From a virus (lineage: Duplodnaviria; Caudoviricetes), in the IMG/VR virus record IMGVR_UViG_3300032225_000723, positions 1 to 45,816 of that record: a stretch of DNA of 45,816 nt; one strand, written 5' to 3'. The translations under genes were made by a program, and so were the position numbers. Shown piece by piece: positions 6,586 to 22,274 of this stretch (the stretch's first letter is position 1; each line of letters starts with the position of its first letter). Below the pieces are notes generated by a model. That model was given only the letters and a program-made list of their open reading frames with translations. It searched no databases and was not told the DNA's origin.

Positions 6586-6612
6586 TTGACAGGTTTAAAC
6601 ACGTGCTATCAT
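6586..6612 (+). promoter_or_regulatory. Sigma70-type early promoter
   Basis: TTGACA (6586) and extended -10 TGcTATCAT (6604-6612) with an A-tract upstream; spacer is short (15 bp) and contains GTTTAAAC. Confidence 0.55.
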
Positions 6613-6696
6613 TGAGTCTCATTCGGTGCTTGCACTGAGTGAAAAAAGAAGTAAGAGGTGCGATGAAAGAGCCTCGGTTTTCTAGAAACCAAAATG

Positions 6697-6981
6697 TTCC
6701 GATGTGCGATAGCAGAGCATCGTTAAACAAGTGGCTGAGTAACTGGTGACTCGCAGTGATAGCACCAGTAGGGTAGATAAGGCTAGTAGGCTCTGTGCGT
6801 GGATACGAGAACACAACCGAACGAGATAACAACCCTGACCGCTTTGACCTGACGGTGACAACGTCAGCGAGTGCGACAGTTACTCAGCGATGAGTTGTTC
6901 TTTCCGATGTGCGACTCCGAGAGCATCGATAAATAAATGCGGATATACGTGCGATAGCAGAGCGTAGAAAAACAAGTGGCT
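6697..6981 (+). repeat. Three imperfect repeats forming hairpins with conserved loop TGCGA...GAG
   Basis: CGATG-TGCGATAGCAGAG-CATCG (6700-6722), CGATG-TGCGACTCCGAGAG-CATCG (6905-6928), TACG-TGCGATAGCAGAG-CGTA (6946-6966). Confidence 0.75.
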
Positions 6982-7089
6982 CGTGAGATTTAATCTCATT
7001 GCACACGACTAGCAACCCACCTACAACATTCGGGTGCTGACTGTGTGCAAGAGGATGCAATCTCGCATCTTTTTGTGGAGGCTTAAACC

Positions 7090-7281
7090 ATGACGATTAA
7101 TACATTTAATGCAGTAGGCATTGCCGAGGGTTTCATTGAGGCTGACTCGGAGGAGCAAGTGCTTGAGGCTTGGCAGTATCTAGTTGACTCAGGCATCGTG
7201 TGGCAGTTGCAAGGTTGGTTCGGACGTACTGCGAACGAACTCATCGAGCGTGGTTTCATCACTGCTCGTTCATCTAACTAA
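7090..7281 (+). CDS. Conserved small early phage protein
   Basis: 63 aa; GGAGG RBS; AWQYLVDSGIVWQLQGWFGRTA motif recurrent in phage early genes. Confidence 0.8.
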   Translation: MTINTFNAVGIAEGFIEADSEEQVLEAWQYLVDSGIVWQLQGWFGRTANELIERGFITARSSN

Positions 7282-7290
7282 GGAGGCATC

Positions 7291-7482
7291 GTGAAAAAAC
7301 TTTTAGAAAGTTTGGTTGTTGTTGTTTCACTCATCGTGTTCGTTCTCTTTCTGTTCGTGTTCATTCTCGATTGGACAGGCGGTTGCGGTGAGACGTACGA
7401 GTATGCGAACGGCACACTGCATCAAGGCGAGTGTGTTGGTCGTGAGTTCTTAAATTCTTATATCAAGGAGGTGTTCAAATGA
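7291..7482 (+). CDS. Small membrane protein
   Basis: N-terminal TM helix; AGGAGG RBS. Confidence 0.7.
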   Translation: MKKLLESLVVVVSLIVFVLFLFVFILDWTGGCGETYEYANGTLHQGECVGREFLNSYIKEVFK

Positions 7483-8042
7483 GCACACGTGAAGATTGGT
7501 TAAACCAAGCAGTAGAAGAGTTGCGCCCTGTGTTCGATGCGAGTGGCTTTGCCTTACCCGCAAACATTCGTGTCACGTGTGGCTTTCCATCCCGCCATGC
7601 ACGTTCGCTTAATCGTGCCATCGGTGAGCACTGGTCTGACAAGGCATCGTCTGACGGTACTCATGAGATTCTTATCTCACCAGTGGAGGCTGACCCTTTC
7701 GAGGTGTTCGGTATTCTCGTGCACGAGTTGGCTCACAGTGCGACTGACGGTGACGGTCATCGTGGTCGTTTTCCATCATGCGTTAAAGCGTTGCACCTTG
7801 AGGGCAAACCGACTAGCACCAAGGTCGGTCAACGGTTCAGAGATAACTTCGGTGCTCTCGTTGAGTCGTTGGGCATCTACCCTCATGCTCGTTTAAACGT
7901 TGGGGCTAATCGCAAGACTCAATCGACACGCATGCTCAAAGCATCGTGCCCCGCTTGTGGCTACACGATTCGTCTCACCAAGACTTGGGCTGACAGAGGC
8001 TTGCCTACTTGCCCAGTTGATGCAGTTACTTTTGTTCTTTAA
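7479..8042 (+). CDS. SprT-like zinc metalloprotease
   Basis: HELAH...GH metal-binding motif and C-terminal CPAC...CP zinc ribbon. Confidence 0.8.
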   Translation: MSTREDWLNQAVEELRPVFDASGFALPANIRVTCGFPSRHARSLNRAIGEHWSDKASSDGTHEILISPVEADPFEVFGILVHELAHSATDGDGHRGRFPSCVKALHLEGKPTSTKVGQRFRDNFGALVESLGIYPHARLNVGANRKTQSTRMLKASCPACGYTIRLTKTWADRGLPTCPVDAVTFVL

Positions 8043-8069
8043 TTCACTTTATCTTCGGAGGCTTAAATC

Positions 8070-9554
8070 GTGAATACAAACCATATCAAACTCGCTTTAT
8101 CAAAACTCTCTCAACCAGTTCTCAATGCAGTGCTAGTCAATCATGGCTTTGCAGTTGAGGCAAACAAGACTAATGCCATCACACTCATCGAGGACTTAAT
8201 CAACAACGGCAAGGTCACTCTCTCTCAGGTGCAGAGCACACAGGCAACGGCAGTCAATTCTGTTGCTACCAGTGCGAACGTTCCTGATGACATCCGCAAG
8301 AAGTTACTCAGCGCACAGGCTGAAGTTGCCAATGCAGTTGCAGAGGTCGAACGTGTTCGTGAAGTTGCGAATCGTTTGCTCGATGACAACCTCAAGCAAC
8401 AGAATGCGAACGACAAAAAGTTCAACGAGTTGACTACTCGTTTGAACAACGAGTTGAACGCAGTGCAAGGTGTTGACTACAACAAGGTCGAGTCTGCAAT
8501 TGCAAGCAGTGTTGCAAAGTCTTTCAGTGCATTCCGCAAGGTCACACCGAAAGAAGAGTTGGTCACCATCGCCAGTGCATTGCCTGTATGCGAACGCAAA
8601 CTGGTCAAGGACGTGTTCACTGGTCAGCAGTTGTCATACGAGCACAAGGGTGAGGTGATTGACTTCTCGAACAACCTCATCGATGTGTGGAACGATTCAT
8701 CTGCTCCCGCTCGTGTCGATGACTACGTGTTCAATGCAGAGCACTTGCATCAGACCTTGTGTGCGCTTGACGGTTCGTTGCCTGACAACGTGTGGCTTGC
8801 GGGTGAGCGTGGCACTGGCAAGACAGAGTTCGTGACTCAAGTTGCATCACGTCTTGGTCGCAGACTTTTCAAGGTGTCATTCGATGAGTCAATCGAGCGC
8901 ACTGAGTTCATCGGTGGCAATACGATTCTGAACGGCAACGTGGTGTGGAAAGAGGGCATCATCACTCAAGCAATCCAACACACTGGCGCAATCGTTCTGC
9001 TCGATGAAATCGGTTTTGCTCGTGCACAGAATCTCGCAGTGTTGCATGCAGTGACAGAGCCATCGCCTCATCGTGCTCTCGTTATCTCTGAAACTGGTGT
9101 TCGCATTCCAGTTGCATCGCACGTTGTGTTCTTCTGCGCTGATAACTCGAACGGTCATGGTGATGCGACAGGAAACTTTGCGGGTGTGCGTGACCAAAAC
9201 ACTGCGTTCATTGACCGCTTTAGTTACACACTGGAGTTCGAGTACTTGCCACACGATGCAGAGGTCGCATTGTTGTGCACACGTACTGGCATCCCTCACG
9301 ATGCAAGCAACGTGTTGGTGACGTTCGCTAACACTGCTCGTGAGAAAGCACGTGCGGGTTTGTTAACTCAACCTCCATCACTGCGCCAGTTGTTTGCGTG
9401 GGCAAGAGCAATACAAAAAGGTGTGCCAGTTTCAATCGCATTCGAGAATGCCATCGTCAACAAGTTCCCCGCAGACTGCGAGGCTGAGTTGCGTGGTGTG
9501 TTCAGTGCAACGATTGATGTTGGTTCGTTGAAATCTTTTCTCGTTAAGAAGTAA
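8070..9554 (+). CDS. MoxR/CbbQ/CobS-type AAA+ ATPase
   Basis: Walker A GERGTGKT, Walker B LLDE, AFIDRF arginine finger, SLRQL sensor 2; coiled-coil N-terminus. Confidence 0.9.
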   Translation: MNTNHIKLALSKLSQPVLNAVLVNHGFAVEANKTNAITLIEDLINNGKVTLSQVQSTQATAVNSVATSANVPDDIRKKLLSAQAEVANAVAEVERVREVANRLLDDNLKQQNANDKKFNELTTRLNNELNAVQGVDYNKVESAIASSVAKSFSAFRKVTPKEELVTIASALPVCERKLVKDVFTGQQLSYEHKGEVIDFSNNLIDVWNDSSAPARVDDYVFNAEHLHQTLCALDGSLPDNVWLAGERGTGKTEFVTQVASRLGRRLFKVSFDESIERTEFIGGNTILNGNVVWKEGIITQAIQHTGAIVLLDEIGFARAQNLAVLHAVTEPSPHRALVISETGVRIPVASHVVFFCADNSNGHGDATGNFAGVRDQNTAFIDRFSYTLEFEYLPHDAEVALLCTRTGIPHDASNVLVTFANTAREKARAGLLTQPPSLRQLFAWARAIQKGVPVSIAFENAIVNKFPADCEAELRGVFSATIDVGSLKSFLVKK

Positions 9555-9563
9555 GGAGGCTAC

Positions 9564-10691
9564 ATGTTAGGTACTGACGTTAAGCGTGGTGTCGCATCAA
9601 CACTAGAGCGTGTGTTCAATTCAAATGGCGAACGGTTCGACAAGTTAGAAGTCTTGTGGACAGGGCGCACTGCGGGAATCATCTTCAATCGTACGTTGTT
9701 CAAGTGCGATGCCAAGGTGCTCTTCCCCGCCATTGATGAGACCGCACAAATCCCCAACGATACTTTCAATAACCTCATCGGGTATGCGTTGCATGAGTTG
9801 GGTCATGCATGGTTCACCGATAACAAACCTTGGGACGATGCACGTAATCGTCATGGTCACTTTGTGAGCAATCTCATCAACGGTCTTGAAGACCCACGCA
9901 TTGAGCGTAAGGTCATCGAGTCAGGTCGTGCGCCAAACAGTCGTGCGTTGTTTGAGAATCTTCTTAACTCTGTTCTCAAGCGTGATGGTTACGTTGAGGC
10001 TGATGACAAAAAGAACATTCCCTTTCTGCTTGCAGTTGAGGGTAGACGTTTAAACGGTTATCAAATCAACGTTTCAAACATCATCAACGATTCACCTTGG
10101 GCAAAGCATTTGCACTGGGCACTCAAACGTGCAAGCCAAGCCAAGGACACCGCAACGATTGTGAAGATTGCAATCGAGTTGTTCAAACGTATCAAGGAAC
10201 AAGAGCAAGCGGGTAAGTCAGAGGGCAACGAGAAGTCTGACGAGGGTCAACCTCAACAGGGTGACGGTCAAGACGGTCAGCCACAGGGTGACAAGCCCAG
10301 TGACAAACCTAGTGATGGTCAGCCTAGTGACAAGCAAGACGGTGACAAGCCAAAGCAAGACGGTGAGAACGGTCAGCCTGATGGTGAGGGTGACGGTCAA
10401 CCTGACGGTGACGGTGAGCAAGGTGACGGTTCTAATGGCTCTGACAGTGGTGATGGTCAGGACGGTCAGGACGGTCAGCCTAGTGAGTCAGACGGTGAGT
10501 CAGAGGGTGACTCGCAAGATGGCGAGGGTGGTGGTAACGGCAAGAGCGATACAAGTTTTGATGGTGGTCGTGATGTAGAACCAAGCGACTTCATTCAAGG
10601 CGAGTTGACCAAGCACTCATCGAGCGCAGACAACGTGACAAGCAGACCGTCAGTTGGCAAGCCTCGTGTTGAAACTTTTAATTGGAGGTAA
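9564..10691 (+). CDS. CobT-N-like metallopeptidase-motif protein with acidic G/D/Q linker
   Basis: HELGH and NGLEDPRIER motifs; follows the AAA+ gene; low-complexity GDGQ tail. Confidence 0.75.
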   Translation: MLGTDVKRGVASTLERVFNSNGERFDKLEVLWTGRTAGIIFNRTLFKCDAKVLFPAIDETAQIPNDTFNNLIGYALHELGHAWFTDNKPWDDARNRHGHFVSNLINGLEDPRIERKVIESGRAPNSRALFENLLNSVLKRDGYVEADDKKNIPFLLAVEGRRLNGYQINVSNIINDSPWAKHLHWALKRASQAKDTATIVKIAIELFKRIKEQEQAGKSEGNEKSDEGQPQQGDGQDGQPQGDKPSDKPSDGQPSDKQDGDKPKQDGENGQPDGEGDGQPDGDGEQGDGSNGSDSGDGQDGQDGQPSESDGESEGDSQDGEGGGNGKSDTSFDGGRDVEPSDFIQGELTKHSSSADNVTSRPSVGKPRVETFNWR

Positions 10692-10696
10692 TCATC

Positions 10697-11506
10697 GTGG
10701 CTACATTAATCAAATCAGAATGTGAGCGTAACTTTTCTTTTCAGTTCAACGCACAACCTAGTGGTCTCGGTGCTACTCGTGCCAACCTCTTGCGCCTATT
10801 GCGTTCGCTTGACCTCGTAGGTTGGAACACACACGAGGAGTCAGGACGTTTAGACCGTAAAGCGTTTACACGTTTTGCTACTGGCAGTACCGCAGTATTC
10901 AGCAAGCGTGTGCACGTTGATGCCGAGACTTCAGCAGTATCAATCTTGATTGACTGTTCGGGTTCGATGAGCAATGGTGGTTTGATTCAGACTGCCGAGG
11001 CTTTGACTATCCAGTTGTCACGCATCCTCGACAAAGCGAACGTTGAGTTCAACGTCACTGGGTTCTACGGTGAAGATGGTCGCATTCGTTCAGAGGCAAG
11101 TGGCGCAGTCAAGACTGACGTGAGCATCAAGTACGAGCGCCCTACATTCGTACCGTTCAAGACTTGGAAAGATTCACTGCAACGTGCATCTGCTAAGTTG
11201 GGTTCGATACATCAGTGGGCACAGTCAGCAACACCTGACTACTCATCAATCAGTATCACGATTGAAGAGTTGGCGCAACGTCAAGAGCAACGCAAGATTT
11301 TGTTCTTGCTCACTGATGCCAGTGGTTACAACAAGGCTCACATGAAACACTTGCAGTCAGTTGCTGACAAGTTGAATGTGAAGATTGTCGCAATCGGTAT
11401 TGGTCGCACTGATGTCAAGGAATGCTTTCGCTCAAGCGAGAACGTTACGAGCATCGATGGTCTTGCATCTGCATCGTTTAACAAGTTGCTAAAGGAGTTG
11501 CAATGA
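10697..11506 (+). CDS. VWA-domain protein (CobT C-terminal-like)
   Basis: SGRLD, MIDAS DCSGS, LLTDA, IGIG; GTG start after GGAGG. Confidence 0.85.
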   Translation: MATLIKSECERNFSFQFNAQPSGLGATRANLLRLLRSLDLVGWNTHEESGRLDRKAFTRFATGSTAVFSKRVHVDAETSAVSILIDCSGSMSNGGLIQTAEALTIQLSRILDKANVEFNVTGFYGEDGRIRSEASGAVKTDVSIKYERPTFVPFKTWKDSLQRASAKLGSIHQWAQSATPDYSSISITIEELAQRQEQRKILFLLTDASGYNKAHMKHLQSVADKLNVKIVAIGIGRTDVKECFRSSENVTSIDGLASASFNKLLKELQ

Positions 11507-11688
11507 TGAACAGTTTGTGGTCTGAATGCATCGAGCAAGACGATGACAAACTGTTTGTCTTGCATGAAGTATTTACTAGATTTGATGGGGCTGAGTATAA
11601 GTTGAAGTTGAATGCTCAGTGCCCTGTCAACGCAATCGAAATCGCACGTTCAATTCCAATCAAACACTGGGAGAAACTAAATGTATAA
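11503..11688 (+). CDS. Hypothetical protein
   Basis: AAGGAG RBS; coupled ORF. Confidence 0.6.
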   Translation: MMNSLWSECIEQDDDKLFVLHEVFTRFDGAEYKLKLNAQCPVNAIEIARSIPIKHWEKLNV

Positions 11689-11866
11689 AGAAGAAATTAT
11701 TAAGCACTTCACAATCCTCTGCACCTCCAACGGTTACATGATTGAGCATGAAGACGATGACGGTGGATATGAATATATCCATGCGCCCAATGGTGACAAC
11801 ACGTTTGACACGTACTCGCAAGCAACGGTTGTCTTGGCTCATTACTTACTGGGGGTGGTGCTATGA
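11681..11866 (+). CDS. Hypothetical protein
   Basis: GGAG RBS; coupled ORF. Confidence 0.6.
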   Translation: MYKEEIIKHFTILCTSNGYMIEHEDDDGGYEYIHAPNGDNTFDTYSQATVVLAHYLLGVVL

Positions 11867-12045
11867 CTCAATACAAATGGGAAGTCGCATGCGTTGACCA
11901 ACGCTTTGACGATGAGGGTTTTGAAATTGGTCGTTCTGTTAAAACCCACGATGGCAAGTGGGCTTATGAAATTTACAAACAAGTGTTCGTGCATCGTGCT
12001 GATGCCGAGCGTGTTGCTGAACGTTTAAACAAGGAGCAATCATGA
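11863..12045 (+). CDS. Hypothetical protein
   Basis: ATGA overlap with previous ORF. Confidence 0.6.
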   Translation: MTQYKWEVACVDQRFDDEGFEIGRSVKTHDGKWAYEIYKQVFVHRADAERVAERLNKEQS

Positions 12046-12191
12046 TTGATATTGATGAATTGAAGAGTGACATCCAAGAGTTGCTTGACCTGACAGTGGA
12101 GGAGCATGCCACTGGCACTGTCAACAAAGAGGCTGACAAGTTGTGGTCAAAGATTGATGGCACGTTAAACAAACTAAAGGAGTTGTTATGA
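12042..12191 (+). CDS. Hypothetical protein (49 aa)
   Basis: Hand-translated MIDIDELKSDIQELLDL...; AAGGAG RBS; ATGA overlaps on both sides. Confidence 0.65.
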   Translation: MIDIDELKSDIQELLDLTVEEHATGTVNKEADKLWSKIDGTLNKLKELL

Positions 12192-12520
12192 GCACTGATT
12201 ACTATCACACCGACAGTTCGGCACGTGACACCATTCGTAACTACAGGGATGGCAATGGGTTCGATACGTTCGCAGAGGCTATCGCTGACATGCAAGCATG
12301 CATCGATGACCTTGACGATGAAGACAAGAGCGCCCTGTGCTACGTTGAGCGCAAGCCTGACATGCTTAACCAGTTGTGCAACACACCTCGCAAGTTCATC
12401 AAGCGTTGGTGCGTGGTCGTGCAGTGGAGCGATGGCACGTCAGAGGAGCGTACCGATGTGCCACCTCTGCGTGACCTTGAGGAATGTTTTGATGAGTGGG
12501 AGTTGGAGGCTAACCAATGA
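12188..12520 (+). CDS. Hypothetical acidic protein
   Basis: 110 aa; AAGGAG RBS. Confidence 0.65.
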   Translation: MSTDYYHTDSSARDTIRNYRDGNGFDTFAEAIADMQACIDDLDDEDKSALCYVERKPDMLNQLCNTPRKFIKRWCVVVQWSDGTSEERTDVPPLRDLEECFDEWELEANQ

Positions 12521-12663
12521 AGATTAAACCAACCAACCCTGTGGTCAAGGCGATGATTGAACAACCCAACCGCTCGATTAAGAAACACAAATCGTCCCGA
12601 TGGAAACTGTTTCAAGACATCATCAAAAAAGAAATCAAAGAACGTGAAACTAATCAGCGATAA
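12517..12663 (+). CDS. Small basic protein (48 aa)
   Basis: Hand-translated MKIKPTNPVVKAMIEQPNRSIKKHKSSRW...; GGAGG RBS. Confidence 0.65.
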   Translation: MKIKPTNPVVKAMIEQPNRSIKKHKSSRWKLFQDIIKKEIKERETNQR

Positions 12664-12686
12664 AAAAGAATCTTGACACTAGTTCT

Positions 12687-12722
12687 TCCCCCCCTTGGGC
12701 AACCATCGGGGGGATTTTTTTT
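12687..12722 (+). terminator. Rho-independent terminator of early operon
   Basis: TCCCCCC..TGG-GCAA-CCA..GGGGGGA hairpin followed by 8 T. Confidence 0.85.
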
Positions 12723-12855
12723 GCCCAAATTTTTTAAAAGTGGGAAATTCCCCAGATGAAGGTAAAGCGTTTAAACGGTCTGCTGTTGGCGTATCCGCTT
12801 CGTTTCCTGCTTTTCAGGATTACCTGCCGTTGTTTAAACGGCAAGTGTTTACAGG

Positions 12856-14559
12856 TTAAAACGCATCCGTTTCTTCAAAGTAAGTTCCAGTTGCCTTGTT
12901 GTAACCAAGAGTTGTTTCGCCCTGAGTTCCAATCCATCTAAAGCGACACTTCCAAACCGCAATCTCTACGTCATTGGTTTTGGTGCGATGAACAGTGATA
13001 CCGCAATCTGCCTTTGCCCACCAAGCCATCGAGCCGGAGATAGCCATGCCGTCAGGTCTTGGCAAGTCCATGTTGGAGCGAGTGATTTTGGATGGGTGAG
13101 CCACAAACCAAATATGAACACCGTAAGCCTTTGCGAACGCTTGCATGCGTGTGAGCATTGATGAAATGAATTCGTGCTCTGCTTGACCGCTCTTGTTCTC
13201 AATGTAGTTGTATGGGTCAATGACTAAGCCACGTATACCGCTACGAGCAACGGCTACTCGTGCACGTTCAAGGATGGAATCAATTGATGATGGTTCAGCG
13301 CCCTCTGAATCTAAGAACAAGAAGTGGTTCTCTACCCACTTGAATGCCTCGTCCTTTTCTACTTCGTTCATGCGCTCCTTGCCATCAAAGAATCGTTTCT
13401 CTTTGTATATCTCCATGAGGCGAGAGATATGAATCTCAGGCTGATTCTCAAACGAACACAACGCAAACTTCCAATCATGCGCCTTGGCTAAGTTCACCAT
13501 CAGTTGGTCAACAAAGTTTGACTTACCGCTTGATGGATAACCAGTGACGATGGTCAGTTGACCTTGAGCCACTGTGTAAATTTCATCAACGTTGGAGTAG
13601 CCAGTAGAAACACCTTTGCCTGTGCCCTTACCCCATAAATCGTTTAAACGGTCTAAGAACTTGCTGGCAGTTGATAAACCCGCTACTGGATATGGCTCGG
13701 CAGATTCAACAATGTTTACAACCAGTTCTTTACCTTGGTCTAAGAATGCCTCGTTCAAATCCTTGTAAGCAAACTTAGCGATACGGCACTTGTCTTTGCC
13801 GATACGTCTAGCCAGTTCTTCCGCTAACGCTTGACCCGCAGTATCGGTGTCAGTTGCGATGGTGACGTAAGGAACATTTTTGAGCATGTCAAACGCATTC
13901 CATACAAAACTAAAACGCTTGTCTTCTGATGCATCAATCTTGCCATCAGTTACTTTCATTGGCGCACCGCTTGGCACTGAAAGCACGTTCTTGATACCGC
14001 ACTCCATGAGTGTTAGGGCATCAATCTCACCCTCAACAATTACCACTGGGAGCGTTTGGTCGATGTGGTCAATACCAAAAAAGTCATGCGCCCCACCCGC
14101 ATCTTGCGTAAAGTCTTTTGATTCAATCGAACGATACTTGGTTGAAACGTAGATACCGTTTCGGAAATACGGGAAGCCGATGGCATCGGTCTCCTTGTTT
14201 AAACGTTGAAAGTATTTGCTGGCGGAAAACAATTTCATCTCATCTGCCACTCGCTCTGAGATACCACGTGACTTCAAGAAGTTGAGGTGTTGTGGTTGTA
14301 ACTTGTTAAGAGTTGGCATTTGTTTGAGAGGAATCACGTTTTGCTCCTTGCGGTAAATTGGTTTAGATGGATATGTTTTGTTGGGTACGATGCCTCCAAT
14401 GCCACAGTGGTGGCAGTGATAGACCAACCCCTCGCTCTTGCGATGGATGGCTAAATCTTTTTGGTTGGATTTCTTGCGCTCGGTCTTGCAGTTTGGGCAA
14501 GTGACACGCTGAGAATCATCGATGTAAAGCGATGATATAAGTTCTGCTACTGCATTCAA
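12856..14559 (-). CDS. Primase-helicase (T7 gp4/Twinkle-like)
   Basis: Zn finger CPNC...CHHC, TOPRIM VEGEID / DTDTAG, SF4 helicase GYPSSGKS, VIDPYN, VAHP; TTG start after AGGAGG. Confidence 0.92.
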   Translation of the reverse strand: MNAVAELISSLYIDDSQRVTCPNCKTERKKSNQKDLAIHRKSEGLVYHCHHCGIGGIVPNKTYPSKPIYRKEQNVIPLKQMPTLNKLQPQHLNFLKSRGISERVADEMKLFSASKYFQRLNKETDAIGFPYFRNGIYVSTKYRSIESKDFTQDAGGAHDFFGIDHIDQTLPVVIVEGEIDALTLMECGIKNVLSVPSGAPMKVTDGKIDASEDKRFSFVWNAFDMLKNVPYVTIATDTDTAGQALAEELARRIGKDKCRIAKFAYKDLNEAFLDQGKELVVNIVESAEPYPVAGLSTASKFLDRLNDLWGKGTGKGVSTGYSNVDEIYTVAQGQLTIVTGYPSSGKSNFVDQLMVNLAKAHDWKFALCSFENQPEIHISRLMEIYKEKRFFDGKERMNEVEKDEAFKWVENHFLFLDSEGAEPSSIDSILERARVAVARSGIRGLVIDPYNYIENKSGQAEHEFISSMLTRMQAFAKAYGVHIWFVAHPSKITRSNMDLPRPDGMAISGSMAWWAKADCGITVHRTKTNDVEIAVWKCRFRWIGTQGETTLGYNKATGTYFEETDAF

Positions 14560-14576
14560 TTAAGCCTCCTACGAAT

Positions 14577-14813
14577 TTACTTTTTATTGTCCGACTTGTT
14601 CGCCCTTGGGGAACGTAGTCTTAAATTTCCTGTTTTTGTTTTGCCACCAGTTTTGATGGGTGTTATGTGGTCGATGTTTTTGCCTGTTCTGTCTATGCCT
14701 TTCTTATCGTATAGCCGTCTTGCTTTTTGACGTTCGAGTTGTCCTTTGTCATCTCCCCTTTGTAACTGGGTTTGATATTCTTTTTTCCAATCTCGTTTAT
14801 CTTTCGTTGCCAT
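14577..14813 (-). CDS. Small HNH endonuclease-like protein
   Basis: NIDHITPIKTGG...NLRLRSPRAN. Confidence 0.8.
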   Translation of the reverse strand: MATKDKRDWKKEYQTQLQRGDDKGQLERQKARRLYDKKGIDRTGKNIDHITPIKTGGKTKTGNLRLRSPRANKSDNKK

Positions 14814-15314
14814 GTTTGCCTTGTTACTATAAGTATTGATACACCTTGTATGTACTGCCCTCTTGGGGAGGGCAGACCTAGCCTTAAACTAGGTGTGCCT
14901 TAACAACCGCCCACATTGGCTCGATTGACCCGACAGACTTTTCATGCGAGGGACTCTGTCTTCGCCATCCCTTTTCGGTCTCTAACGCACTAACCATAGT
15001 ACCGACAATCTAACCTCTTGACCCTACCGTTTTTCATCGACAATCAAGAGCGAGTGATTATGTTACTGGGTTTCGTATGTACGTTGCAAGCGAATTTGTA
15101 AAAAAATATGGTAAACACCTAGCAACGATGTTTAAACTTTGTGATACTCAGCCGGGTCATTGACGACTCAGCCGGTAAAAACCAGATGTGCAAAAAAAAG
15201 AGAATGCGTTTAAACATTCTCTTAAACTCCGTGAAGGAGGAGGCAACTGCAATGAAGCAATCAACGTCTATTGTGAACCAATAAAAAATATTTTCAATCA
15301 GAACGTTTCTGTTG

Positions 15315-15344
15315 TTGACAGATTTTTTTTTCATGGTGTATGAT
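15315..15344 (+). promoter_or_regulatory. Sigma70 promoter of candidate sRNA
   Basis: TTGACA-N18-TATGAT. Confidence 0.7.
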
Positions 15345-15350
15345 TGCACC

Positions 15351-15422
15351 ACTATCTCGATTAAGCCTCCTGATACAGACCAGTAGGTCGGAAAGCCACC
15401 CTTAAAAAAGGTGGCTTTTTTT
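15351..15422 (+). ncRNA. Candidate small RNA with anti-Shine-Dalgarno seed
   Basis: Lies between a promoter and a terminator with no ORF; contains ATTAAGCCTCCT complementary to phage RBSs. Confidence 0.5.
15392..15422 (+). terminator. Rho-independent terminator
   Basis: AAAGCCACC-cttaaaaaa-GGTGGCTTT stem, T-run on + strand; may also stop convergent rusA transcription. Confidence 0.85.
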
Positions 15423-15786
15423 ATTCCCTTGGCGATACCTCTATTTCACACCGAGGGTTCTCTTTATCTACCCCCATCCAATAGATATGCTTTTCTTTGA
15501 CTTGCCTGTCGTTCTCATACAGAACGTCTTGCAGTAAATCAAGAATTAAACTCTCGTCCAAATCAGGTCTGCGTGATGCATACCAAATGCGAATCGTTAC
15601 TACAACATCGCCTGTAAATTTTTGGGAAGCAGGAACATTGCATTGTTGTTTAAACGCTTTAGCATAAGCCAGCGCTTTGCTGGACTTGATAAACATTGGC
15701 TTGCCACCGATGTACACCATCTTGCGTGAGTTTGCTTTGCTTGCGGGTTCGCCAAATATTTTTAGTGATAGTGTTTGCATAGTCAT
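15421..15786 (-). CDS. rusA: RusA-family Holliday junction resolvase
   Basis: GEPASKAN, RRPDLD, DLLQDVLYENDRQV motifs. Confidence 0.85.
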   Translation of the reverse strand: MTMQTLSLKIFGEPASKANSRKMVYIGGKPMFIKSSKALAYAKAFKQQCNVPASQKFTGDVVVTIRIWYASRRPDLDESLILDLLQDVLYENDRQVKEKHIYWMGVDKENPRCEIEVSPRE

Positions 15787-15803
15787 AAAAGTAGTGCTAT
15801 TAT
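15775..15803 (+). promoter_or_regulatory. Sigma70 promoter for recombination operon
   Basis: TTGCAT-N17-TATTAT with TGn extension, 24 bp before the 15827 start. Confidence 0.6.
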
Positions 15804-15826
15804 CAAAGTTCTTAAACGGAGGCTAA

Positions 15827-16720
15827 ATGAAGATTACGAACAAATTCAATGTACCCGAAACGTTGGTCGCTCTTGCATCAAGAGATTACTACAGTAAGGG
15901 CAAGTCTGACTACTCAGTCACAGAAATCATCTCACCACCACGCATTCAACGTCTCAGGCGCAAGCACCATGAAGAGATAGAGCAAGACGTGTCCGACATG
16001 TTGTGGATGCTATTAGGGACTGCACTGCATGTTGTAGCAGAACGTTCTGAGGTGGCGGGTCATACCAATGAAGAGCGCTTGTCTGTTGGTATTGATGACA
16101 TCATTCTTTCAGGTGCGATTGACTTACAAAAGAACGATGCAGATGGCACTGTCATTACTGACTACAAGTTTACGTCAGCATGGGCTTTGATGAACGACAA
16201 GCCTGAGTGGGAGCAACAACAAAACATTTACAAGTACTTAGTTGAGCGGGTGAAGAGGACTCAAGTTAAGAAGTTGGAAATCTGTGCGCTCATTCGTGAT
16301 TGGTCACGCAGAGAGGCAATGGTCAAGCCGTCTTATCCACAAGCACCAATTCAGATTATCAACATCCCTATGTGGACTCATGATAGGACTGAGGCATTCA
16401 TTAAAGAACGTGTCGAGATGCATCGTGACTCCAAGGTCAAAGCAGATTGGGATGAAGAGTTACCACTGTGCACAGAAGAAGACCGTTGGATTCGTGAAAC
16501 TAAGTATGCGTTGAAAAAAGAGGGGCGAAAAACTGCCGTCCGAGTTTTTGACAACGAGCAAGAGGCAAAAGATTTGTTGGCAACCATGCCCGACAAAGAC
16601 AAGGGATTCATAGAAATTCGCAAAGGGGAGGCAGTACGTTGCACTGGTAATTTTTGTGGTGTAGCGCAGTGGTGTACGCAGTATCAATCATCGTTAAAAG
16701 AGGAGGCAGAAGATGAGTAA
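15827..16720 (+). CDS. PD-(D/E)XK (Cas4/RecB-like) exonuclease
   Basis: LGTALH, SGAID, ITDYK motifs; C-terminal Cys cluster (C..RC...C....WC). Confidence 0.85.
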   Translation: MKITNKFNVPETLVALASRDYYSKGKSDYSVTEIISPPRIQRLRRKHHEEIEQDVSDMLWMLLGTALHVVAERSEVAGHTNEERLSVGIDDIILSGAIDLQKNDADGTVITDYKFTSAWALMNDKPEWEQQQNIYKYLVERVKRTQVKKLEICALIRDWSRREAMVKPSYPQAPIQIINIPMWTHDRTEAFIKERVEMHRDSKVKADWDEELPLCTEEDRWIRETKYALKKEGRKTAVRVFDNEQEAKDLLATMPDKDKGFIEIRKGEAVRCTGNFCGVAQWCTQYQSSLKEEAEDE

Positions 16721-16973
16721 CAAAGAACACGAAAATTTATTAAATCAATTTTTAAAAGATAAAGGCTGGAATCTTGAAGTCAATCTTGATGTAGACGAAG
16801 TTGATGTGTGTGAAATATCTGACAAAGAGTTGTTAGAAAGAGTTGTTGAACTTGGATTGTCTGAATACGACATCAGATGGGAGGGTTGCTATCAAAGAGT
16901 TTTGTTTCAAGAGTTAAATGAAAGACTTAAAAAACTTTTATATAAATTGGGGGATTCAGATGGAGACCACTAA
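16713..16973 (+). CDS. Hypothetical protein
   Basis: AGGAGG RBS; coupled ORF. Confidence 0.6.
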   Translation: MSNKEHENLLNQFLKDKGWNLEVNLDVDEVDVCEISDKELLERVVELGLSEYDIRWEGCYQRVLFQELNERLKKLLYKLGDSDGDH

Positions 16974-17136
16974 TTCTTTGGCAGACCAGTTACAAAACAT
17001 GGTAACGAACACGATTCTTGACAGAATTGTTTGCGATAAATCAGCGTTAAGACTGAGAGTGTTGGAGGCAGAGGTGGCATTTCAAACGAAACGTGCCGAT
17101 GCATTAGAGGCTAAATTAAATGGAGTTACTAAATGA
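16960..17136 (+). CDS. Hypothetical coiled-coil protein
   Basis: METTNSLADQ...; start placed at ATG 16960. Confidence 0.55.
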   Translation: METTNSLADQLQNMVTNTILDRIVCDKSALRLRVLEAEVAFQTKRADALEAKLNGVTK

Positions 17137-17783
17137 AAGTTTATAAAAAATTGTCAGAGGCACGTGTTGCCTTGCAGTCAAAGGAGTTGACCAAGTCAGG
17201 TCATAACAAGTTTGCGGGTTATAAATATTTTGAATTGGGAGATTTTCTTCCTGCGATTCAAGAAATTTTTAACGTTGTGGGCTTGGTTGATGTCATTTCA
17301 TTTACAGACGAAGTAGCAACGATGACCATCTACGCACATGAAGATGGTTCGTCAGTAACGTTTACATCGCCTATGGGTTCAGCCTCATTGAAAGGTTGTC
17401 ACGAGGTTCAGAATATTGGTGCGGTGGAAACCTACCAACGGAGGTACTTATATACGGTAGCGATGGCGGTGTCCGAGCATGATGCGCTCGATGCCACTAC
17501 AGGAGGAGTAGCCCCTGACCCAAAGCCAGTTAAGGCAGAGCCAAAAGCAAAGCCTGACACTGGGACTGCAAAGGTAATCGATACCGAACCTAGCCCCGAT
17601 ACCGTGTTGCTTGTTGATAGCCTGATTCAGTTTGGCGAAACATGCATTACGTTGTCAGAGTTGACTTCATTGTGGAAAGCAAACCAAGGTCAGATTGATG
17701 GTTTAAAAACTACGGCTAAGTCAGAGTACAAGAGACTGCAAGATAAGTTTGCAGAGTTCAAAGCAAAATTTAAGGAAGATTAA
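17133..17783 (+). CDS. ERF-family ssDNA-annealing recombinase
   Basis: KSGHNKFAGYKYFELGD, IGAVETYQRRY motifs. Confidence 0.88.
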   Translation: MKVYKKLSEARVALQSKELTKSGHNKFAGYKYFELGDFLPAIQEIFNVVGLVDVISFTDEVATMTIYAHEDGSSVTFTSPMGSASLKGCHEVQNIGAVETYQRRYLYTVAMAVSEHDALDATTGGVAPDPKPVKAEPKAKPDTGTAKVIDTEPSPDTVLLVDSLIQFGETCITLSELTSLWKANQGQIDGLKTTAKSEYKRLQDKFAEFKAKFKED

Positions 17784-17785
17784 TC

Positions 17786-18070
17786 ATGGAAAAGAAGTTT
17801 GAAAAACGTCCGAACAGTGGCGCATTGTTTGCGGTCAAGAGCAAAAAGAATCCCAATCAACCTGACTATCGTGGTGACTTGTTGATTGACCTCAATGCGT
17901 TCGAGGTTGTAGACAATCAAATTACGGTGTCGTTATCAGGTTGGAAAAAGCCAATGAGCGGTGGCAGTACTTTCCTTTCTTTGCAAGCACAAAAGCCTTA
18001 CGTTGCAGAGAACCAAGCACCACAACAACAATCTAACAATGGAGATATGGACGATGACATCCCTTTCTAA
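17786..18070 (+). CDS. ssDNA-binding protein (DUF736-like)
   Basis: NSGALF, PDYRG, acidic tail DDDIPF. Confidence 0.75.
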   Translation: MEKKFEKRPNSGALFAVKSKKNPNQPDYRGDLLIDLNAFEVVDNQITVSLSGWKKPMSGGSTFLSLQAQKPYVAENQAPQQQSNNGDMDDDIPF

Positions 18071-18380
18071 AAAAACAGTACCTGAGTTCCCTTTGAAAAA
18101 ACGTGGCAGACCAGTTGGCTCAAAAAACAAAGTTATTAGAAAAGTTGCTGGCAGAGAATTTGTTTTCAAGAAAAAAGACGCAGCGGCTACCAAGTCGTTT
18201 AAACGTCCTGTAACTCAGCAGCAAACAATTCTTGCAAAACTCCTTGATGATAATTTGCAGTTCATCAGCGACAACAAGAAGTTAGTTGACCGCATCAATA
18301 ATCTTGAGCACCAAGCAATTGGTTACCGAGCCGTTGTGTCTTACTTAGAAAACCAGTTAGGTTTAAAGGTGGCTCAATGA
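18054..18380 (+). CDS. AT-hook + coiled-coil protein
   Basis: KKRGRPVGSKNK; start placed after GGAG RBS. Confidence 0.6.
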   Translation: MTSLSKKTVPEFPLKKRGRPVGSKNKVIRKVAGREFVFKKKDAAATKSFKRPVTQQQTILAKLLDDNLQFISDNKKLVDRINNLEHQAIGYRAVVSYLENQLGLKVAQ

Positions 18381-18793
18381 ACGCACTACAGTTTGAATGC
18401 GTAAAGGTTGCCTTGAAACAAGACCGCACTGGATACGTTCTTACTGTAAGCGTTCACCCTGACGAAGTTCCCGAAGAGTTACTGCGGGACTTTGTTGGGG
18501 CTAGATACGGTGTTGCGATGGTTCGCATCCAAGATAACGAAACCGCCACTCCCTATAACAACAGGGTAAAAAAAGCGGGAATGATTTGCCGTGATTCTGC
18601 TTTTCGTTTGTGGTTACGTGAGGAGTGTGGTGTAGCCACAGTTCGCACAGAAGACGATGCAGTTGAATCTTTGTACAAGATTTGCAATATCCAATCTCGT
18701 ACAGAACTAAACGGCAATCATGATGCTCAACAAAAATTTGACGAAATGGTAGAAAACTATGAACGATGGAAAGAAAAAAGTGAGCCGTTTTAA
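18377..18793 (+). CDS. Conserved phage protein
   Basis: 138 aa coupled ORF; CNIQSRTEL motif. Confidence 0.7.
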   Translation: MNALQFECVKVALKQDRTGYVLTVSVHPDEVPEELLRDFVGARYGVAMVRIQDNETATPYNNRVKKAGMICRDSAFRLWLREECGVATVRTEDDAVESLYKICNIQSRTELNGNHDAQQKFDEMVENYERWKEKSEPF

Positions 18794-19079
18794 AACCGTC
18801 AAACAAAAAGTAATTTACTTACCACATGACTTGGCTGATAAGTTCGAGAAGTATTCGAGCAAAAACAAAATTACTCAGTCAAGACTTGTGTGTGAGGGAA
18901 TCACTATGCGAATGTCGGGAACAGAAGACCCGTTTAACGAAGGATTTAATCAAGGTTTAAACGAAGCGATGCGGATTGTCCGTGAAACTAAGGGGGCAAA
19001 AATGATGTTCCCATCAGGAAAATCTTTTGGCGAGTTGGTATGCGATGAGATTGACCGTTACATCAGGGAGAAGCCATGA
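18780..19079 (+). CDS. Putative ribbon-helix-helix DNA-binding protein
   Basis: KQKVIYLPHDLADKFEKYSSKNKITQSRLVCEGI RHH pattern. Confidence 0.55.
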   Translation: MSRFKTVKQKVIYLPHDLADKFEKYSSKNKITQSRLVCEGITMRMSGTEDPFNEGFNQGLNEAMRIVRETKGAKMMFPSGKSFGELVCDEIDRYIREKP

Positions 19080-19273
19080 CCGAACAGGACAAGCAACACC
19101 TTGAATGGCTTTACAGGGGTTTTGCCATGATGGGATTTGTAATGGCGAATTACCCAGTTGATGAGATTCCTACGTTATCCAAGGATTTGGCAAAAGCAAT
19201 GATGACCGAACCCGAAGAGTCAGGAATCATGGCAATTAAACCTAAGAAGAAGTACGTTCGTAAAGGAGATTGA
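19076..19273 (+). CDS. Hypothetical protein
   Basis: Coupled ORF; GGAG RBS. Confidence 0.65.
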   Translation: MTEQDKQHLEWLYRGFAMMGFVMANYPVDEIPTLSKDLAKAMMTEPEESGIMAIKPKKKYVRKGD

Positions 19274-19274
19274 T

Positions 19275-19457
19275 ATGTTTGAAACGATTGTTAACATTGG
19301 AATCATTGGACTTGCGCTTATCGGATTTGTTTTTGTAGGTTTCTTATGCTTTGTTTTCTTAGTACGTTGGTGGGTTATTTGGAATGAACTAAGAGAAAAA
19401 CGCAAAGAAGAACGTGAATCTAAAACGAGCGTAAAAAGCGATGACAAACTTAATTGA
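19275..19457 (+). CDS. Small membrane protein
   Basis: TM helix then basic tail; AAGGAG RBS. Confidence 0.65.
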   Translation: MFETIVNIGIIGLALIGFVFVGFLCFVFLVRWWVIWNELREKRKEERESKTSVKSDDKLN

Positions 19458-20352
19458 GTTTGGCGATTGCCGAGACATCATGAAACGTTGGATAGCCGAG
19501 GGGGTCAAGGTTCAAACTTGTATCACCTCGCCTCCTTATTTTGGATTGAGGGACTATGGACATGAACGACAGTTGGGCTTGGAAAATGATATTGGGCTTT
19601 ACGTTAGTAATCTTGTGGACGTGTTTAGGGACGTATGGAGCCTACTGTCTGATGATGGAACTGTTTGGCTAAATCTTGGGGACAGTTATTCTGGCTCTGG
19701 GAAGGGACCGAGTAAGAGTTTAAACGGTGAGCACCATGACATGGAACATAAACATTCCAAGATTGTTCCCAATGGTTTAAAACCCAAAGACCTTATCGGT
19801 GTTCCGTGGCGGGTAGCGTTTGCACTCCAAGAGTTTGGTTGGTACTTGCGCCAAGACATCATTTGGCACAAACCTAACCCTATGCCTGAGTCTGTACGTG
19901 ATAGGTGCACCAAGAACCACGAGTACATATTCCTGCTATCCAAAAATTCCAAGTATTACTTTGACAACGAGGCTATCAAAGAGCCTGTTAAAGAGGATTG
20001 GGGCACACGTGATAGAAGTGATGGCAAATACCATAACGAGGGCACAGGACTACAACCGCATAGCGGATTAGAGAAGTCCTACGAGATGGCAAATAAACGC
20101 TCTGTGTGGTCTGTAACAACCAAGCCGTTTGCTGGCGCACACTTTGCCACCTTTCCTCCCGAACTTATCGAGCCATGCGTTCTTGCGGGTAGCCGTCCCA
20201 ACGACATAGTGCTTGACCCTTTCATGGGTTCAGGAACTACCGCTGCCGTTGCTGACCGTTTAAACAGGCTATACCTTGGCTGCGAGTTGAATCAGGATTA
20301 CGAGAAGTTGCAGAAAGAAAGACTTAAACAACGTTCTTTGGAGTTGATATGA
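19441..20352 (+). CDS. DNA methyltransferase, beta-class (N4-cytosine/N6-adenine)
   Basis: TSPPY catalytic motif before DPFMGSGTT SAM-binding motif. Confidence 0.93.
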   Translation: MTNLIEFGDCRDIMKRWIAEGVKVQTCITSPPYFGLRDYGHERQLGLENDIGLYVSNLVDVFRDVWSLLSDDGTVWLNLGDSYSGSGKGPSKSLNGEHHDMEHKHSKIVPNGLKPKDLIGVPWRVAFALQEFGWYLRQDIIWHKPNPMPESVRDRCTKNHEYIFLLSKNSKYYFDNEAIKEPVKEDWGTRDRSDGKYHNEGTGLQPHSGLEKSYEMANKRSVWSVTTKPFAGAHFATFPPELIEPCVLAGSRPNDIVLDPFMGSGTTAAVADRLNRLYLGCELNQDYEKLQKERLKQRSLELI

Positions 20353-20651
20353 ACAATGAACCAGTAGCGTGGATGTCAAATGGAAAAGAGTTTTATGTTC
20401 AGAAAAATTACTGCCCTGACTTTATTCCACTCTACACCCATCCAGCAAAGGAATCAAAAGCAAAGGATAGGTTTTCTAACTATGAATCAATCTGTCTTCA
20501 ATGTGGCATAACAATTTATAAGCCAGCGTTTAATACGCTAACAGATGAGGAAATACAGGAAATAGCACATGGTTTTGAAGCAATAGGGTGGATGGGCGAA
20601 ACAACATACGAATTTGCTAAAGCAATACTAAGAAAGGCACAAGAGAAATGA
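20349..20651 (+). CDS. Hypothetical phage protein
   Basis: EPVAW...PLYTHP...LTDEEI...FAKAILRKA mosaic motifs common in phage. Confidence 0.7.
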   Translation: MNNEPVAWMSNGKEFYVQKNYCPDFIPLYTHPAKESKAKDRFSNYESICLQCGITIYKPAFNTLTDEEIQEIAHGFEAIGWMGETTYEFAKAILRKAQEK

Positions 20652-20989
20652 CTGAAGAAAAGGGTTGTAAAAAACACTTTGACAGTTGGCTAGACCGTCA
20701 GATTAAGCAGACCGAAAGATATTTAAAGTGGTTAAAGACTCAGCCTCATGACGTTGGGCGAGAGAAAATAGAACACTTGACTGAGAAAGAAATTAAGTTG
20801 GCTTACCGTGTTTGGCAAGTGGCTTGGGTTCTTGGGCAAAAGAATGGCAGACAACAGATGCAATCTCGTCAACCTATATCTGACCAAGAGATGAAAGACC
20901 TTTGGATTGAGTGCGGTCAAGGCAAAATATTTGGACGTGCAATCGAAGCGTTACATGGCATTAAAAGTTTTAAGGAAGAAGAGTGCTAA
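20648..20989 (+). CDS. Hypothetical protein
   Basis: Coupled ORF; FGRAIEALHGI motif. Confidence 0.65.
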   Translation: MTEEKGCKKHFDSWLDRQIKQTERYLKWLKTQPHDVGREKIEHLTEKEIKLAYRVWQVAWVLGQKNGRQQMQSRQPISDQEMKDLWIECGQGKIFGRAIEALHGIKSFKEEEC

Positions 20990-21456
20990 TAAAACTATCT
21001 TCATCTGAGATGCGTTTATGTAAATTGATTGGGTCAATGCGCTATGCCACAACCAGTGATGTCTGTGCCGAGCAGATTCAATCGGATATGAATCCGCTTG
21101 AGATTGTGGTGGACGGTGTCATTGGGGAGTATTGCGTATCTAAGCATTTAAATTTGCACTTTAGTTTGGACACAGACCTACGTGAATGGGGCGCTGACCT
21201 TGTGACTTATCAAGGTAAAACAGTTGATGTTAAAAGCACCCGTGCAAAAGGTGGTCGTTTAAACGCTACAAAGAGCAGCGATAAAAAGAATTACGACATC
21301 TACATTCTTTGTGAACTCAATGATGAGGGTGCAGATATTGTGGGTTGGATTACAAGGGATTCGTTCATCAAGCCTGACAACATTGTGATGGGTAAACGTG
21401 GCGAGTATTACGCAGTGGATAGAAGTAAATTAAAAACAACCTTTACAGGAAATTAA
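20983..21456 (+). CDS. Putative PD-(D/E)XK nuclease-fold protein
   Basis: GVIGE...ADLVTYQGKTVDVKST. Confidence 0.6.
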   Translation: MLIKLSSSEMRLCKLIGSMRYATTSDVCAEQIQSDMNPLEIVVDGVIGEYCVSKHLNLHFSLDTDLREWGADLVTYQGKTVDVKSTRAKGGRLNATKSSDKKNYDIYILCELNDEGADIVGWITRDSFIKPDNIVMGKRGEYYAVDRSKLKTTFTGN

Positions 21457-21458
21457 AA

Positions 21459-21779
21459 ATGAGAAAAGAACTTTATTTGGTCGTGGGATTTTGGTTAGTG
21501 CTTGCTTTCTTTTTATTAGGAAGTGATAGAGCAAAGGCTCAGAACACCACGTTTTACACAAACCAATATGGCGCACCCATAGGTTCAGCCACTACCAGTG
21601 GTAATACCACGTTCTATACAAATCAATATGGTGCTCCAGTTGGAACGGCTACTACTAGCAATAACACTACGTTCTATACAAACCAGTATGGCGCTCCAGT
21701 AGGAACTGCTATCAATAACAATACACAACCGCAGACTCAATCGTTTCCACAACCTTACGTTGGGAGTACTACTCGATGA
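21459..21779 (+). CDS. Secreted protein with three 19-aa repeats
   Basis: Signal peptide (AKA/Q) then NTTFYTNQYGAP(I/V)G(S/T)A x3. Confidence 0.75.
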   Translation: MRKELYLVVGFWLVLAFFLLGSDRAKAQNTTFYTNQYGAPIGSATTSGNTTFYTNQYGAPVGTATTSNNTTFYTNQYGAPVGTAINNNTQPQTQSFPQPYVGSTTR

Positions 21780-21937
21780 GTGAAAAGATTGGCATTCCTT
21801 TCTATGGTTATCTTGACATGGAAGATACAGAAAACATGTTGAGAAAGCAAAATGAAATCTTGCAGCGGGAGATAGACCGTTTAAACGCAGAGGTAATGAC
21901 GTTGCGAAACGAACTCAAGGAGTTAAAAGATGACTAG
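21776..21937 (+). CDS. Small coiled-coil protein (53 aa)
   Basis: Hand-translated MSEKIGIPFYGYLDMED...; ATGA overlap. Confidence 0.6.
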   Translation: MSEKIGIPFYGYLDMEDTENMLRKQNEILQREIDRLNAEVMTLRNELKELKDD

Positions 21938-22274
21938 TTATTGTGAGATTCATACCATTCGTTATGAGGGAATGGAATGCCCCTTTTGTTTTAAAGAGGC
22001 AACAGGAAGTTTTCCAAAAACAATTAACGTGGGAGATGGCGAGGCTACTATGACTTTCCATGACCCAGTGAATCATCCAAAACATTACACATCCCATCCA
22101 TCAGGGGTGGAGTGTATTGAAATAACAGAGCACTTAAACTTCTGTTTAGGTAATGCAATGAAATACATTTGGCGAGCGGGTGAGAAAGACCAAGCCAAAG
22201 AAGTTGAAGACCTTGAAAAAGCATCTTGGTATTTAATTCGTGAGATTGAAAGACGGAAAAAAAGTGGCAACTAA
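21930..22274 (+). CDS. DUF3310 (SaV-like) domain protein
   Basis: DPVNHPKHY...ECIE...GNAMKYIWRAGEK...EDLEKASWYL. Confidence 0.88.
   Translation: MTSYCEIHTIRYEGMECPFCFKEATGSFPKTINVGDGEATMTFHDPVNHPKHYTSHPSGVECIEITEHLNFCLGNAMKYIWRAGEKDQAKEVEDLEKASWYLIREIERRKKSGN

Follow-up and report, generated by a model that had tools for sequence, protein, structure and literature searches.

The stretch of DNA analysed here (the window) is an entire virus record of the Caudoviricetes, IMGVR_UViG_3300032225_000723, which is 45,816 bases long, of the linear class and 74% complete. Immediately downstream of its RusA gene lies a compact plus-strand unit, a putative small RNA (sRNA) gene whose CU-rich 5′ segment (the seed) is complementary to the ribosome-binding sites (RBSs) of several genes of the same phage. 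The unit is composed of the following features:

15315..15344, plus strand: sigma-70-type promoter, TTGACA-N18-TATGAT, with 11 of 12 consensus positions
15351..15422, plus strand: predicted sRNA of ~72 nucleotides (nt), its 5′ end placed from the -10 box
15357..15372, plus strand: CU-rich seed, with the core ATTAAGCCTCCT at 15360-15371
15378..15389, plus strand: small hairpin GACC/GGTC of 4 base pairs (bp), with a C-rich loop in several homologs
15392..15422, plus strand: intrinsic terminator with a 9-bp stem and T7 (hairpin 15392-15418, T7 15416-15422)

The promoter, with TTGACA at 15315-15320, TATGAT at 15339-15344 and an 18-nt spacer, is the best among 20 promoter-like sites in 5000-22000. 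The terminator borders the stop codon of RusA, a gene convergent with the unit, and its hairpin was missed by a generic terminator scan because of its 9-nt loop. Folding of the 74-nt stretch gave z = -3.34, with none of 200 shuffles as good, mainly through the contribution of the terminator. A promoter of its own and an intrinsic terminator with a U-run, with no open reading frame (ORF), are the layout of a trans-acting sRNA. The initial annotation had proposed this promoter, seed and terminator, and their coordinates all hold.

The start regions with complementarity to the seed are given below. The ranks refer to the 60 start regions of the window, called by a simple in-house caller that is biased toward starts with a Shine-Dalgarno motif.

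14556..14571, minus strand: RBS and start codon of the primase-helicase gene, predicted main target, rank 1 of 60
8057..8066, plus strand: RBS of the AAA+ (CobS/MoxR-like) gene 8070-9554, predicted target, 10-nt match, rank 2 of 60
7077..7086, plus strand: RBS of the first gene of the left early operon (7090-7281, DUF7417), predicted target, 10-nt match
15818..15824, plus strand: RBS of the exonuclease gene (15827-16720), first gene of the right early operon, predicted target, 7-nt match
9554..9561, plus strand: RBS of the vWA/CobT-like gene 9564-10691, weaker predicted target, 8-nt match
12505..12511, plus strand: RBS of the 48-amino-acid ORF 12517-12663, weaker predicted target, 7-nt match
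7281..7287, plus strand: AGGAGGC before 7291-7482, 7 nt without the GCT extension, doubtful target
16701..16707, plus strand: AGGAGGC before 16713-16973, 7 nt without the GCT extension, doubtful target

At the primase-helicase gene the 12-nt complement of the seed core occupies 14570-14559, and the predicted duplex extends to 16 contiguous bp over the Shine-Dalgarno sequence and the TTG start, with an energy of -25.7 kcal/mol and two G-U pairs. With the CCTCC core held fixed, the finding of three start regions with a match of at least 10 nt has P = 0.00085; by themselves, the matches of 7-8 nt do not exceed chance. The complements listed in the initial annotation were all recovered, those it gave as 7-8 nt being 8 nt long at 9554 and 7 nt at 7281, 12505, 15818 and 16701. 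The extended Shine-Dalgarno sequences, hereafter called tags, are placed as Shine-Dalgarno motifs should be, with 135 of 167 at 4-7 nt spacing, and the cognate 8-mer is rare outside them.

Relatives were drawn from 158 overlapping loci obtained in two viral-contig scans. The unit is present in 79 of the 114 RusA-bearing loci, the window included, as 43 distinct sequences that pass a pattern and fold filter, and DNA read without any motif filter places it downstream of RusA in most close relatives. In the alignment of these 43 sequences the hairpin and the terminator stem together comprise 13 pairs, of which 94.5% of cells are paired and 11 have two-sided changes; none of 500 shuffles and no slid control reached the observed pairing and covariation, although the consensus structure was taken from the window itself, which favours the covariation result. 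Two-sided changes affect all 4 pairs of the small hairpin (88.4% of cells paired) and 7 of the 9 pairs of the terminator stem (97.2% paired). A promoter with at least 9 of 12 consensus positions precedes the seed in 88% of the 43 homologs, whereas the figure is 2% for the opposite strand, 1% for random positions and 8% for shuffled sequences; the sequences upstream of the seed are otherwise widely divergent. The AGCC.CC columns of the seed are invariant in alignment A1, as the detection pattern demanded. A covariance model found a single strong match in each genome that has the element; G004 and the other searched loci without it gave none. A seed-independent pattern returned 32 matches, all but one on contigs already in the set, the two newly read regions carrying known seeds, and a pattern scan of metagenomes returned 8, of which 7 were inspected: four are family members with the same gene order and three are chance matches.

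It is noted that the loop of the small hairpin holds a second C-rich, anti-Shine-Dalgarno-like tract in L034, L112, L142, L143, L149 and L209, and that L112 carries the tag on 15 of 33 start regions. Among the element-lacking loci, L150, L098, L099, L121, L126, L135, L035 and L158 have a CU-rich tract and a terminator just downstream of RusA, mostly in the opposite orientation. The tract of L150 has its complement, TGCGAGGT, before early genes, at 2 of the 33 called starts, and is complementary to the AAA+ site over 7 nt; that of the L098 group is complementary to ACTGGAG, found at 16 of 196 starts, yet also at 17 of 305 in another class. These tracts are possibly divergent seeds.

The same letters could have a simpler meaning on the other strand, where AGGAGGCTTAA stands before a GTG 13 nt away, and the motif might then be merely the RBS of the minus-strand ORF 15119-15352. 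Ten of the 43 homologs have an ATG at 5-10 nt, which is also what would be expected if the RNA pairs across a start codon. However, the 77-residue product of the ORF matches only that of L001, a 95%-identical relative, among the 158 loci, and it belongs to no PHROG or Pfam family. No start codon is found within 4-14 nt in 15 of the 43 homologs, and the other 28 give peptides of 2-69 residues with shifting spacing. As a general explanation the minus-strand ORF was rejected, since it is not conserved; we regard it as almost certainly wrong. A conserved ORF at this place was the alternative that the initial annotation had named as fatal to its proposal, and that alternative fails.

Five variants of the seed were found, with the complements GGAGGCTTA (common), GGGGGCTTA, GGAGGCTCA, GGAGGCTAA and GGAGGCTTT. 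In phages with the second variant (GGGGGCTTA, CCCCC), the primase RBS reads AGGGGCTTAA in 9/9, the exonuclease RBS GAGGGCTTAA in 9/9 and the AAA+ RBS AGGGGCTTAA in 3/3. The third variant is accompanied by GGAGGCTCA at the primase RBS in 4/4, and a fifth contig of this variant has matched tags at primase, AAA+, vWA and the first early gene; with the fourth (GGAGGCTAA) the primase RBS follows in 6/6. The covariation of seed and RBS that the initial annotation had suggested looking for in relatives was thus found, the state of the primase RBS being that of the seed in 59 of 61 phages, 19 of these 59 having neither. The two exceptions are L109, with a G-U-compatible change, and L034, in which primase is untagged but the exonuclease and AAA+ sites match its variant seed. 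The tag match reaches lineage-specific small genes without a counterpart in the window (G001, G002, G003).

The same relation is visible over whole sets of start regions. When these are counted by class, with each related phage entered on its own and a small number of self-antisense pseudo-starts left in, GGAGGCT is found at 116/850 and GAGGCTC at 8/850 in the common-seed class, GGGGCTT at 29/305 and GGAGGCT at 3/305 in the CCCCC class, GAGGCTC at 12/154 in the TGAGCC class, GAGGCTA at 18/205 and GAGGCTT at 2/205 in the TTAGCC class, and GGAGGCT at 1/795 in phages without the unit. By matches of at least 8 nt, the seed fits start regions of its own phage more often than those of other-class phages in 45 of 47 cases (12.5% vs 2.5%). 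The TTAGCC phages do not form a single clade (p-AU 0.015), and their class has at least two origins. The seed has changed at least five times, and every change has its counterpart at no fewer than two sites, 0.45-8 kb apart. L035/G004, a close relative nested among element-bearing phages, lacks the unit and keeps GGAGG before primase, exonuclease and the first early gene without the extension; the core is therefore needed by ribosomes and not by the RNA.

Watson-Crick covariation alone cannot separate pairing from shared identity, so the tag might instead be read by a phage protein, whether one that binds DNA, a nuclease of the GGAG type or a translational repressor that binds RNA. In that case the intergenic copy would be a decoy on minus-strand RusA read-through RNA, which is possible as the minus strand of the terminator has only T3, or a promoter operator, and all copies would drift with the specificity of the protein. 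Against such a reader, the sole intergenic copy is always antisense to the tags, with the promoter and T-run on that strand only (the 88% and 2% given above). The tags stand at RBS spacing and not at promoters, and the complementarity extends beyond the tag into the spacer and start codon in a lineage-specific manner (12-14 nt in G003 and G012). We consider a protein reader quite improbable.

We propose that this conserved unit likely makes an RNA of ~72 nt, as predicted from its sequence, whose seed would pair with a private Shine-Dalgarno extension and probably represses a subset of early and replication genes together. The conservation of the unit, the strand polarity of its promoter and terminator, the complementarity and the joint change of seed and tag are the parts of the proposal seen in the sequences themselves. 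The RNA gene and its pairing are, by these comparative data, very probable; given pairing, repression would be the strongly favoured outcome. The core claim of the initial annotation, a plus-strand RNA pairing in trans with the phage's own extended RBSs, is supported by the covariation and by the lack of conservation of the minus-strand ORF. In the mechanism that we envisage, host RNA polymerase would make the RNA from the start of infection, using the near-consensus promoter. The RNA would pair over the strongest RBSs of the genome, and over the primase start codon as well, in competition with the 30S subunit. As RNA and genome copies accumulate, the primase-helicase and the heads of both early operons would be turned down, whereas the late genes, being untagged, would escape and continue. 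The role could be that of a build-up timer or a gene-dosage brake: with the primase-helicase and the opening genes of both early operons among the tagged genes, an increase in the RNA would slow replication as well as early expression.

Pairing might also activate or protect, with the RNA shielding early mRNAs from nuclease or aiding ribosome loading. The promoter predicts early expression, the tagged genes are those required early, and the phage sRNA PreS can activate (bioRxiv 10.1101/2024.10.31.621285). However, the Shine-Dalgarno core lies within the predicted duplexes, as does the start codon in the case of primase, and the core is retained where the RNA is absent, which leaves activation highly improbable in our judgement.

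Several observations weigh against repression of an early regulon by pairing. The unpaired probability of the seed in the window copy is 0.56 (homolog range 0.24-0.94); the family has a conserved, mostly single-stranded seed facing several distant start regions, as is typical of sRNAs, but accessibility in the window is moderate and its minimum-energy fold pairs part of the seed. The eight start regions with matches of at least 7 nt have P = 0.076 with the CCTCC core fixed. The raw covariation counts are inflated by kinship: a primase tree, from which 11 groups with absent, short or distant primase and L029, whose element region is cut by a contig end, were left out, yielded only 4 contrasts that are independent and lie on well-supported branches, and none of them is discordant (sign test p = 0.125). 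A single event accounts for the CCCCC class, and the TGAGCC phages may form one clade (p-AU 0.73). In 4 of 6 genomes, the window and G005 being the exceptions, the best mean duplex is the one with the cognate seed; the base 5′ of GG tracks the seed poorly, and wobble (G-U) patterns do not separate RNA from protein recognition. The near-consensus host promoter implies early expression, which suits a threshold or timer and not a dedicated late switch. Transcription, repression by pairing and the biological role are themselves what we infer from the sequence.

The distribution of the tags has two sides. In the window, matches of at least 7 nt precede 8 of 34 early/replication-region genes and none of 26 packaging/virion-region genes, and in six genomes that are whole or nearly so the tags are concentrated in the early region, G002 and G005 each having a single exception in the late region. 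The statement in the initial annotation that the extension precedes early and not virion genes stands to this extent, but 26 of the 34 early-region genes are untagged, and in G005 4 of 11 late orthologs have a match of at least 7 nt to the 22-nt segment. The joint silencing of early and replication genes proposed there would accordingly be limited to the tagged subset (the first genes of both early operons, AAA+/vWA and the primase-helicase), with Erf, SSB, RusA, the methyltransferase and other early genes outside it. GGAGG itself occurs in 0 of 26 late genes of the window; it is also found in 0 of 7 late orthologs of G004, which lacks the unit, so that the escape of late genes need not be due to the RNA. 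The idea that late genes avoid GGAGG because of the RNA is thus not supported. The same counts bear on host shut-off, in which the CCUCC core would block strong host RBSs while late phage genes escape through weak ones. The generic anti-Shine-Dalgarno nature of the core, the second C-rich loop of several homologs and the lack of GGAGG in late genes would fit such a role. A host target, however, leaves the covariation of the extension with phage RBSs unexplained, and the late genes are poor in GGAGG with or without the RNA; host shut-off is hardly to be expected as the main function.

The genome around the unit is arranged as follows, with functions assigned by PHROG, Pfam and NCBIfam matches:

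left part of the window: portal, terminase and a LexA-type helix-turn-helix (HTH) gene (PHROG/Pfam/NCBIfam)
from 7090, plus strand: left early operon, with DUF7417, AAA+ CobS/MoxR-like and two vWA/CobT-like genes
12856-14559, minus strand: primase-helicase (profile match)
15421-15786, minus strand: RusA (profile match)
from the exonuclease at 15827, plus strand: right early operon, through Erf, SSB and methyltransferase
from 22533: virion genes

No DNA match was found in an annotated phage collection, and the best protein matches are 33.6% (primase) and 39.9% (exonuclease); no close cultured relative and no host can therefore be named. Two short contigs of betaproteobacterial metagenome-assembled genomes hold relatives, one with the element, but these contigs carry phage genes exclusively, so the host they suggest is a weak guess. 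No tyrosine integrase was found in 20 records (3 of them at least 90% complete), no serine recombinase, resolvase or ParA-type ATPase in 5 records, and no antirepressor family among the 54 proteins of the window, at its 74% completeness. The stand-alone LexA DNA-binding domain (4276-4506, minus strand), without a peptidase domain, lies immediately before TerL and is also present in G001-G003. The vWA/CobT-like partner of AAA+ is split into two genes (9564-11506, plus strand) that match the two halves of phrog_1576; the split is seen again in relatives.

The same pairing could serve mainly to exclude superinfecting or co-infecting kin, or to maintain a carrier state, the seed variants being exclusion groups like those of c4 RNA. 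The repeated change of seed and RBS together in close relatives, at least five times for the seed, resembles escape and re-matching, cross-class duplexes are mostly weaker, the promoter is strong and of constitutive type, the window has the LexA-type HTH gene, and c4 in P1/P7 provides a precedent. On the other hand, the sampled records have none of the integrase, recombinase, resolvase or ParA-type genes searched for; one seed is common to most sampled phages, and cross-class pairing is still substantial. From this comparison kin exclusion as the main purpose appears unlikely, and self-damping was ranked ahead of it because those genes were not found. The same negatives weaken the carrier-state immunity that the initial annotation had offered (integrase in 0 of 20 records, serine recombinase and ParA in 0 of 5). 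The two purposes are not mutually exclusive. A tentative and rather doubtful extension would unite them in an RNA-addressed regulon, an RBS barcode read by one swappable seed. The RNA would count genome copies or co-infecting kin and shut off replication of any barcode-matched phage; seed and barcodes would be rewritten jointly to escape relatives, giving exclusion groups without lysogeny genes, and L150 and L098/L099/L121/L126/L135 would have retained the arrangement, reversed in orientation and with entirely different seeds.

The unit was also compared with known RNAs, and no Rfam 15 family matches it at the gathering threshold. In Firmicutes, C-rich anti-Shine-Dalgarno sRNAs (RsaE/RoxS, RNAIII) present an unpaired CU-rich motif to G-rich RBSs, and plasmid copy-number antisense RNAs exert a dosage-linked inhibition of a replication protein. 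These RNAs are chromosomal or plasmid-borne, whereas the unit belongs to a phage, and we know of no co-evolving private extension across a regulon in either group. The closest known RNA is the c4 RNA of P1/P7, which is co-transcribed with its target operon and processed from the same transcript. It pairs around the RBS of the ant mRNA and blocks translation, and RBS occlusion is established (PMC12197685, in part); differences in c4 specificity underlie P1/P7 heteroimmunity (excerpt of PMC8198154), and its accession is RF01695 (excerpt of PMC2864571). Both are phage RNAs pairing around phage RBSs, with a seed specificity that changes with the target between phages, as found here. However, c4 controls one operon (icd-ant) in temperate phages, whereas the unit faces 4-15 tagged RBSs on both strands, in phages where no lysogeny markers were found, and it has its own promoter and terminator and one 5′ seed that is an extended anti-Shine-Dalgarno. 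The c4 model gave no match at the gathering score or up to E = 10 except terminator-driven chance matches; by model match and by targets the unit is not a member.

The cis-antisense phage RNAs P22 sar, lambda OOP and aQ, BTP1 STnc6030 and PAK_P4as15 are instances of self-regulation by base pairing (excerpt of PMC12197685). RNAs of the sar/OOP type are encoded opposite a single target; the ORF opposite the unit is not conserved, and its predicted targets are 0.45-8.3 kb away with 7-16 nt of pairing. PreS of lambda and VpdS of VP882 are trans-acting Hfq-type phage sRNAs (same excerpt), of which PreS targets mainly host mRNAs (excerpt of bioRxiv 10.1101/2024.10.31.621285). They resemble the unit in the short trans-acting layout of seed and terminator and in having many targets with a shared motif, but no phage-wide RBS tag is described for them in these excerpts. 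The unit could be among the unannotated structures of the 8,495 IMG/VR alignments of candidate structured viral RNAs (Fremin et al. 2023, PMC10690425, in part). Full-text searches of a collection with few subscription papers turned up no account of a phage RNA that fits a private RBS extension used across a genome. As judged from sequence, the unit appears to be a conserved, undescribed phage sRNA gene, for whose targets the comparative evidence is unusually direct.

Other elements lie nearby. Betaproteobacteria-1 RNA (RF02932) matches 14928-15051 on the minus strand with 68.9 bits, 260 nt from the unit and on the other strand. It occurs in 15 of 21 related phage records, including G004 and G017, which lack the unit, and was not found in the unit-bearing G003, G011 and G012; a link was rejected given this independent distribution, and the two are separate elements. 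This orphan motif of Rfam seems to be a phage element, located upstream of an HNH-like ORF and primase. The palindrome GTTTAAAC occurs at 40 sites in the window against ~1 expected, 34 of them inside called genes (e.g. 6593, 12023, 15130, 15208), and ranks first among 8-mers in 6 of the 7 genomes examined, G003 being the exception. A divergent second unit at 15297-15190 on the minus strand has a promoter-like site (15297-15270), a CCTCCTCC tract, a small hairpin and a terminator with GTTTAAAC in its loop, and this terminator is found again in most relatives. A role as a second anti-RBS RNA is not supported: there was no overall enrichment (1.7% own vs 1.5% other, higher in 19 of 52), in a test where trimming clipped some candidates, and a re-run on element-lacking loci was weak and mixed. 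It may serve as the terminator of RusA or as a leader to the primase transcript, or it may encode a second small RNA. In 6586-7089 on the plus strand, a promoter-like TTGACA-15-TATCAT with a TG extension and GTTTAAAC in its spacer is followed by ~470 nt with short internal repeats and no called plus-strand gene up to the first early gene, possibly a long leader or a further RNA.

In phages without an RNA polymerase of their own or obvious late regulators, the turn-down of early and replication genes has been explained mostly by proteins. If our proposal is true, it would add a regulon-level RNA switch to phage development, and the search for an over-represented RBS extension with one antisense copy would be a way to find such RNAs elsewhere. 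The RBS tag and small RNA, changed together several times, constitute a natural series of compensatory mutations and offer ready orthogonal pairs of seed and target. If true, the pairing may also explain kin exclusion among uncultured phages.
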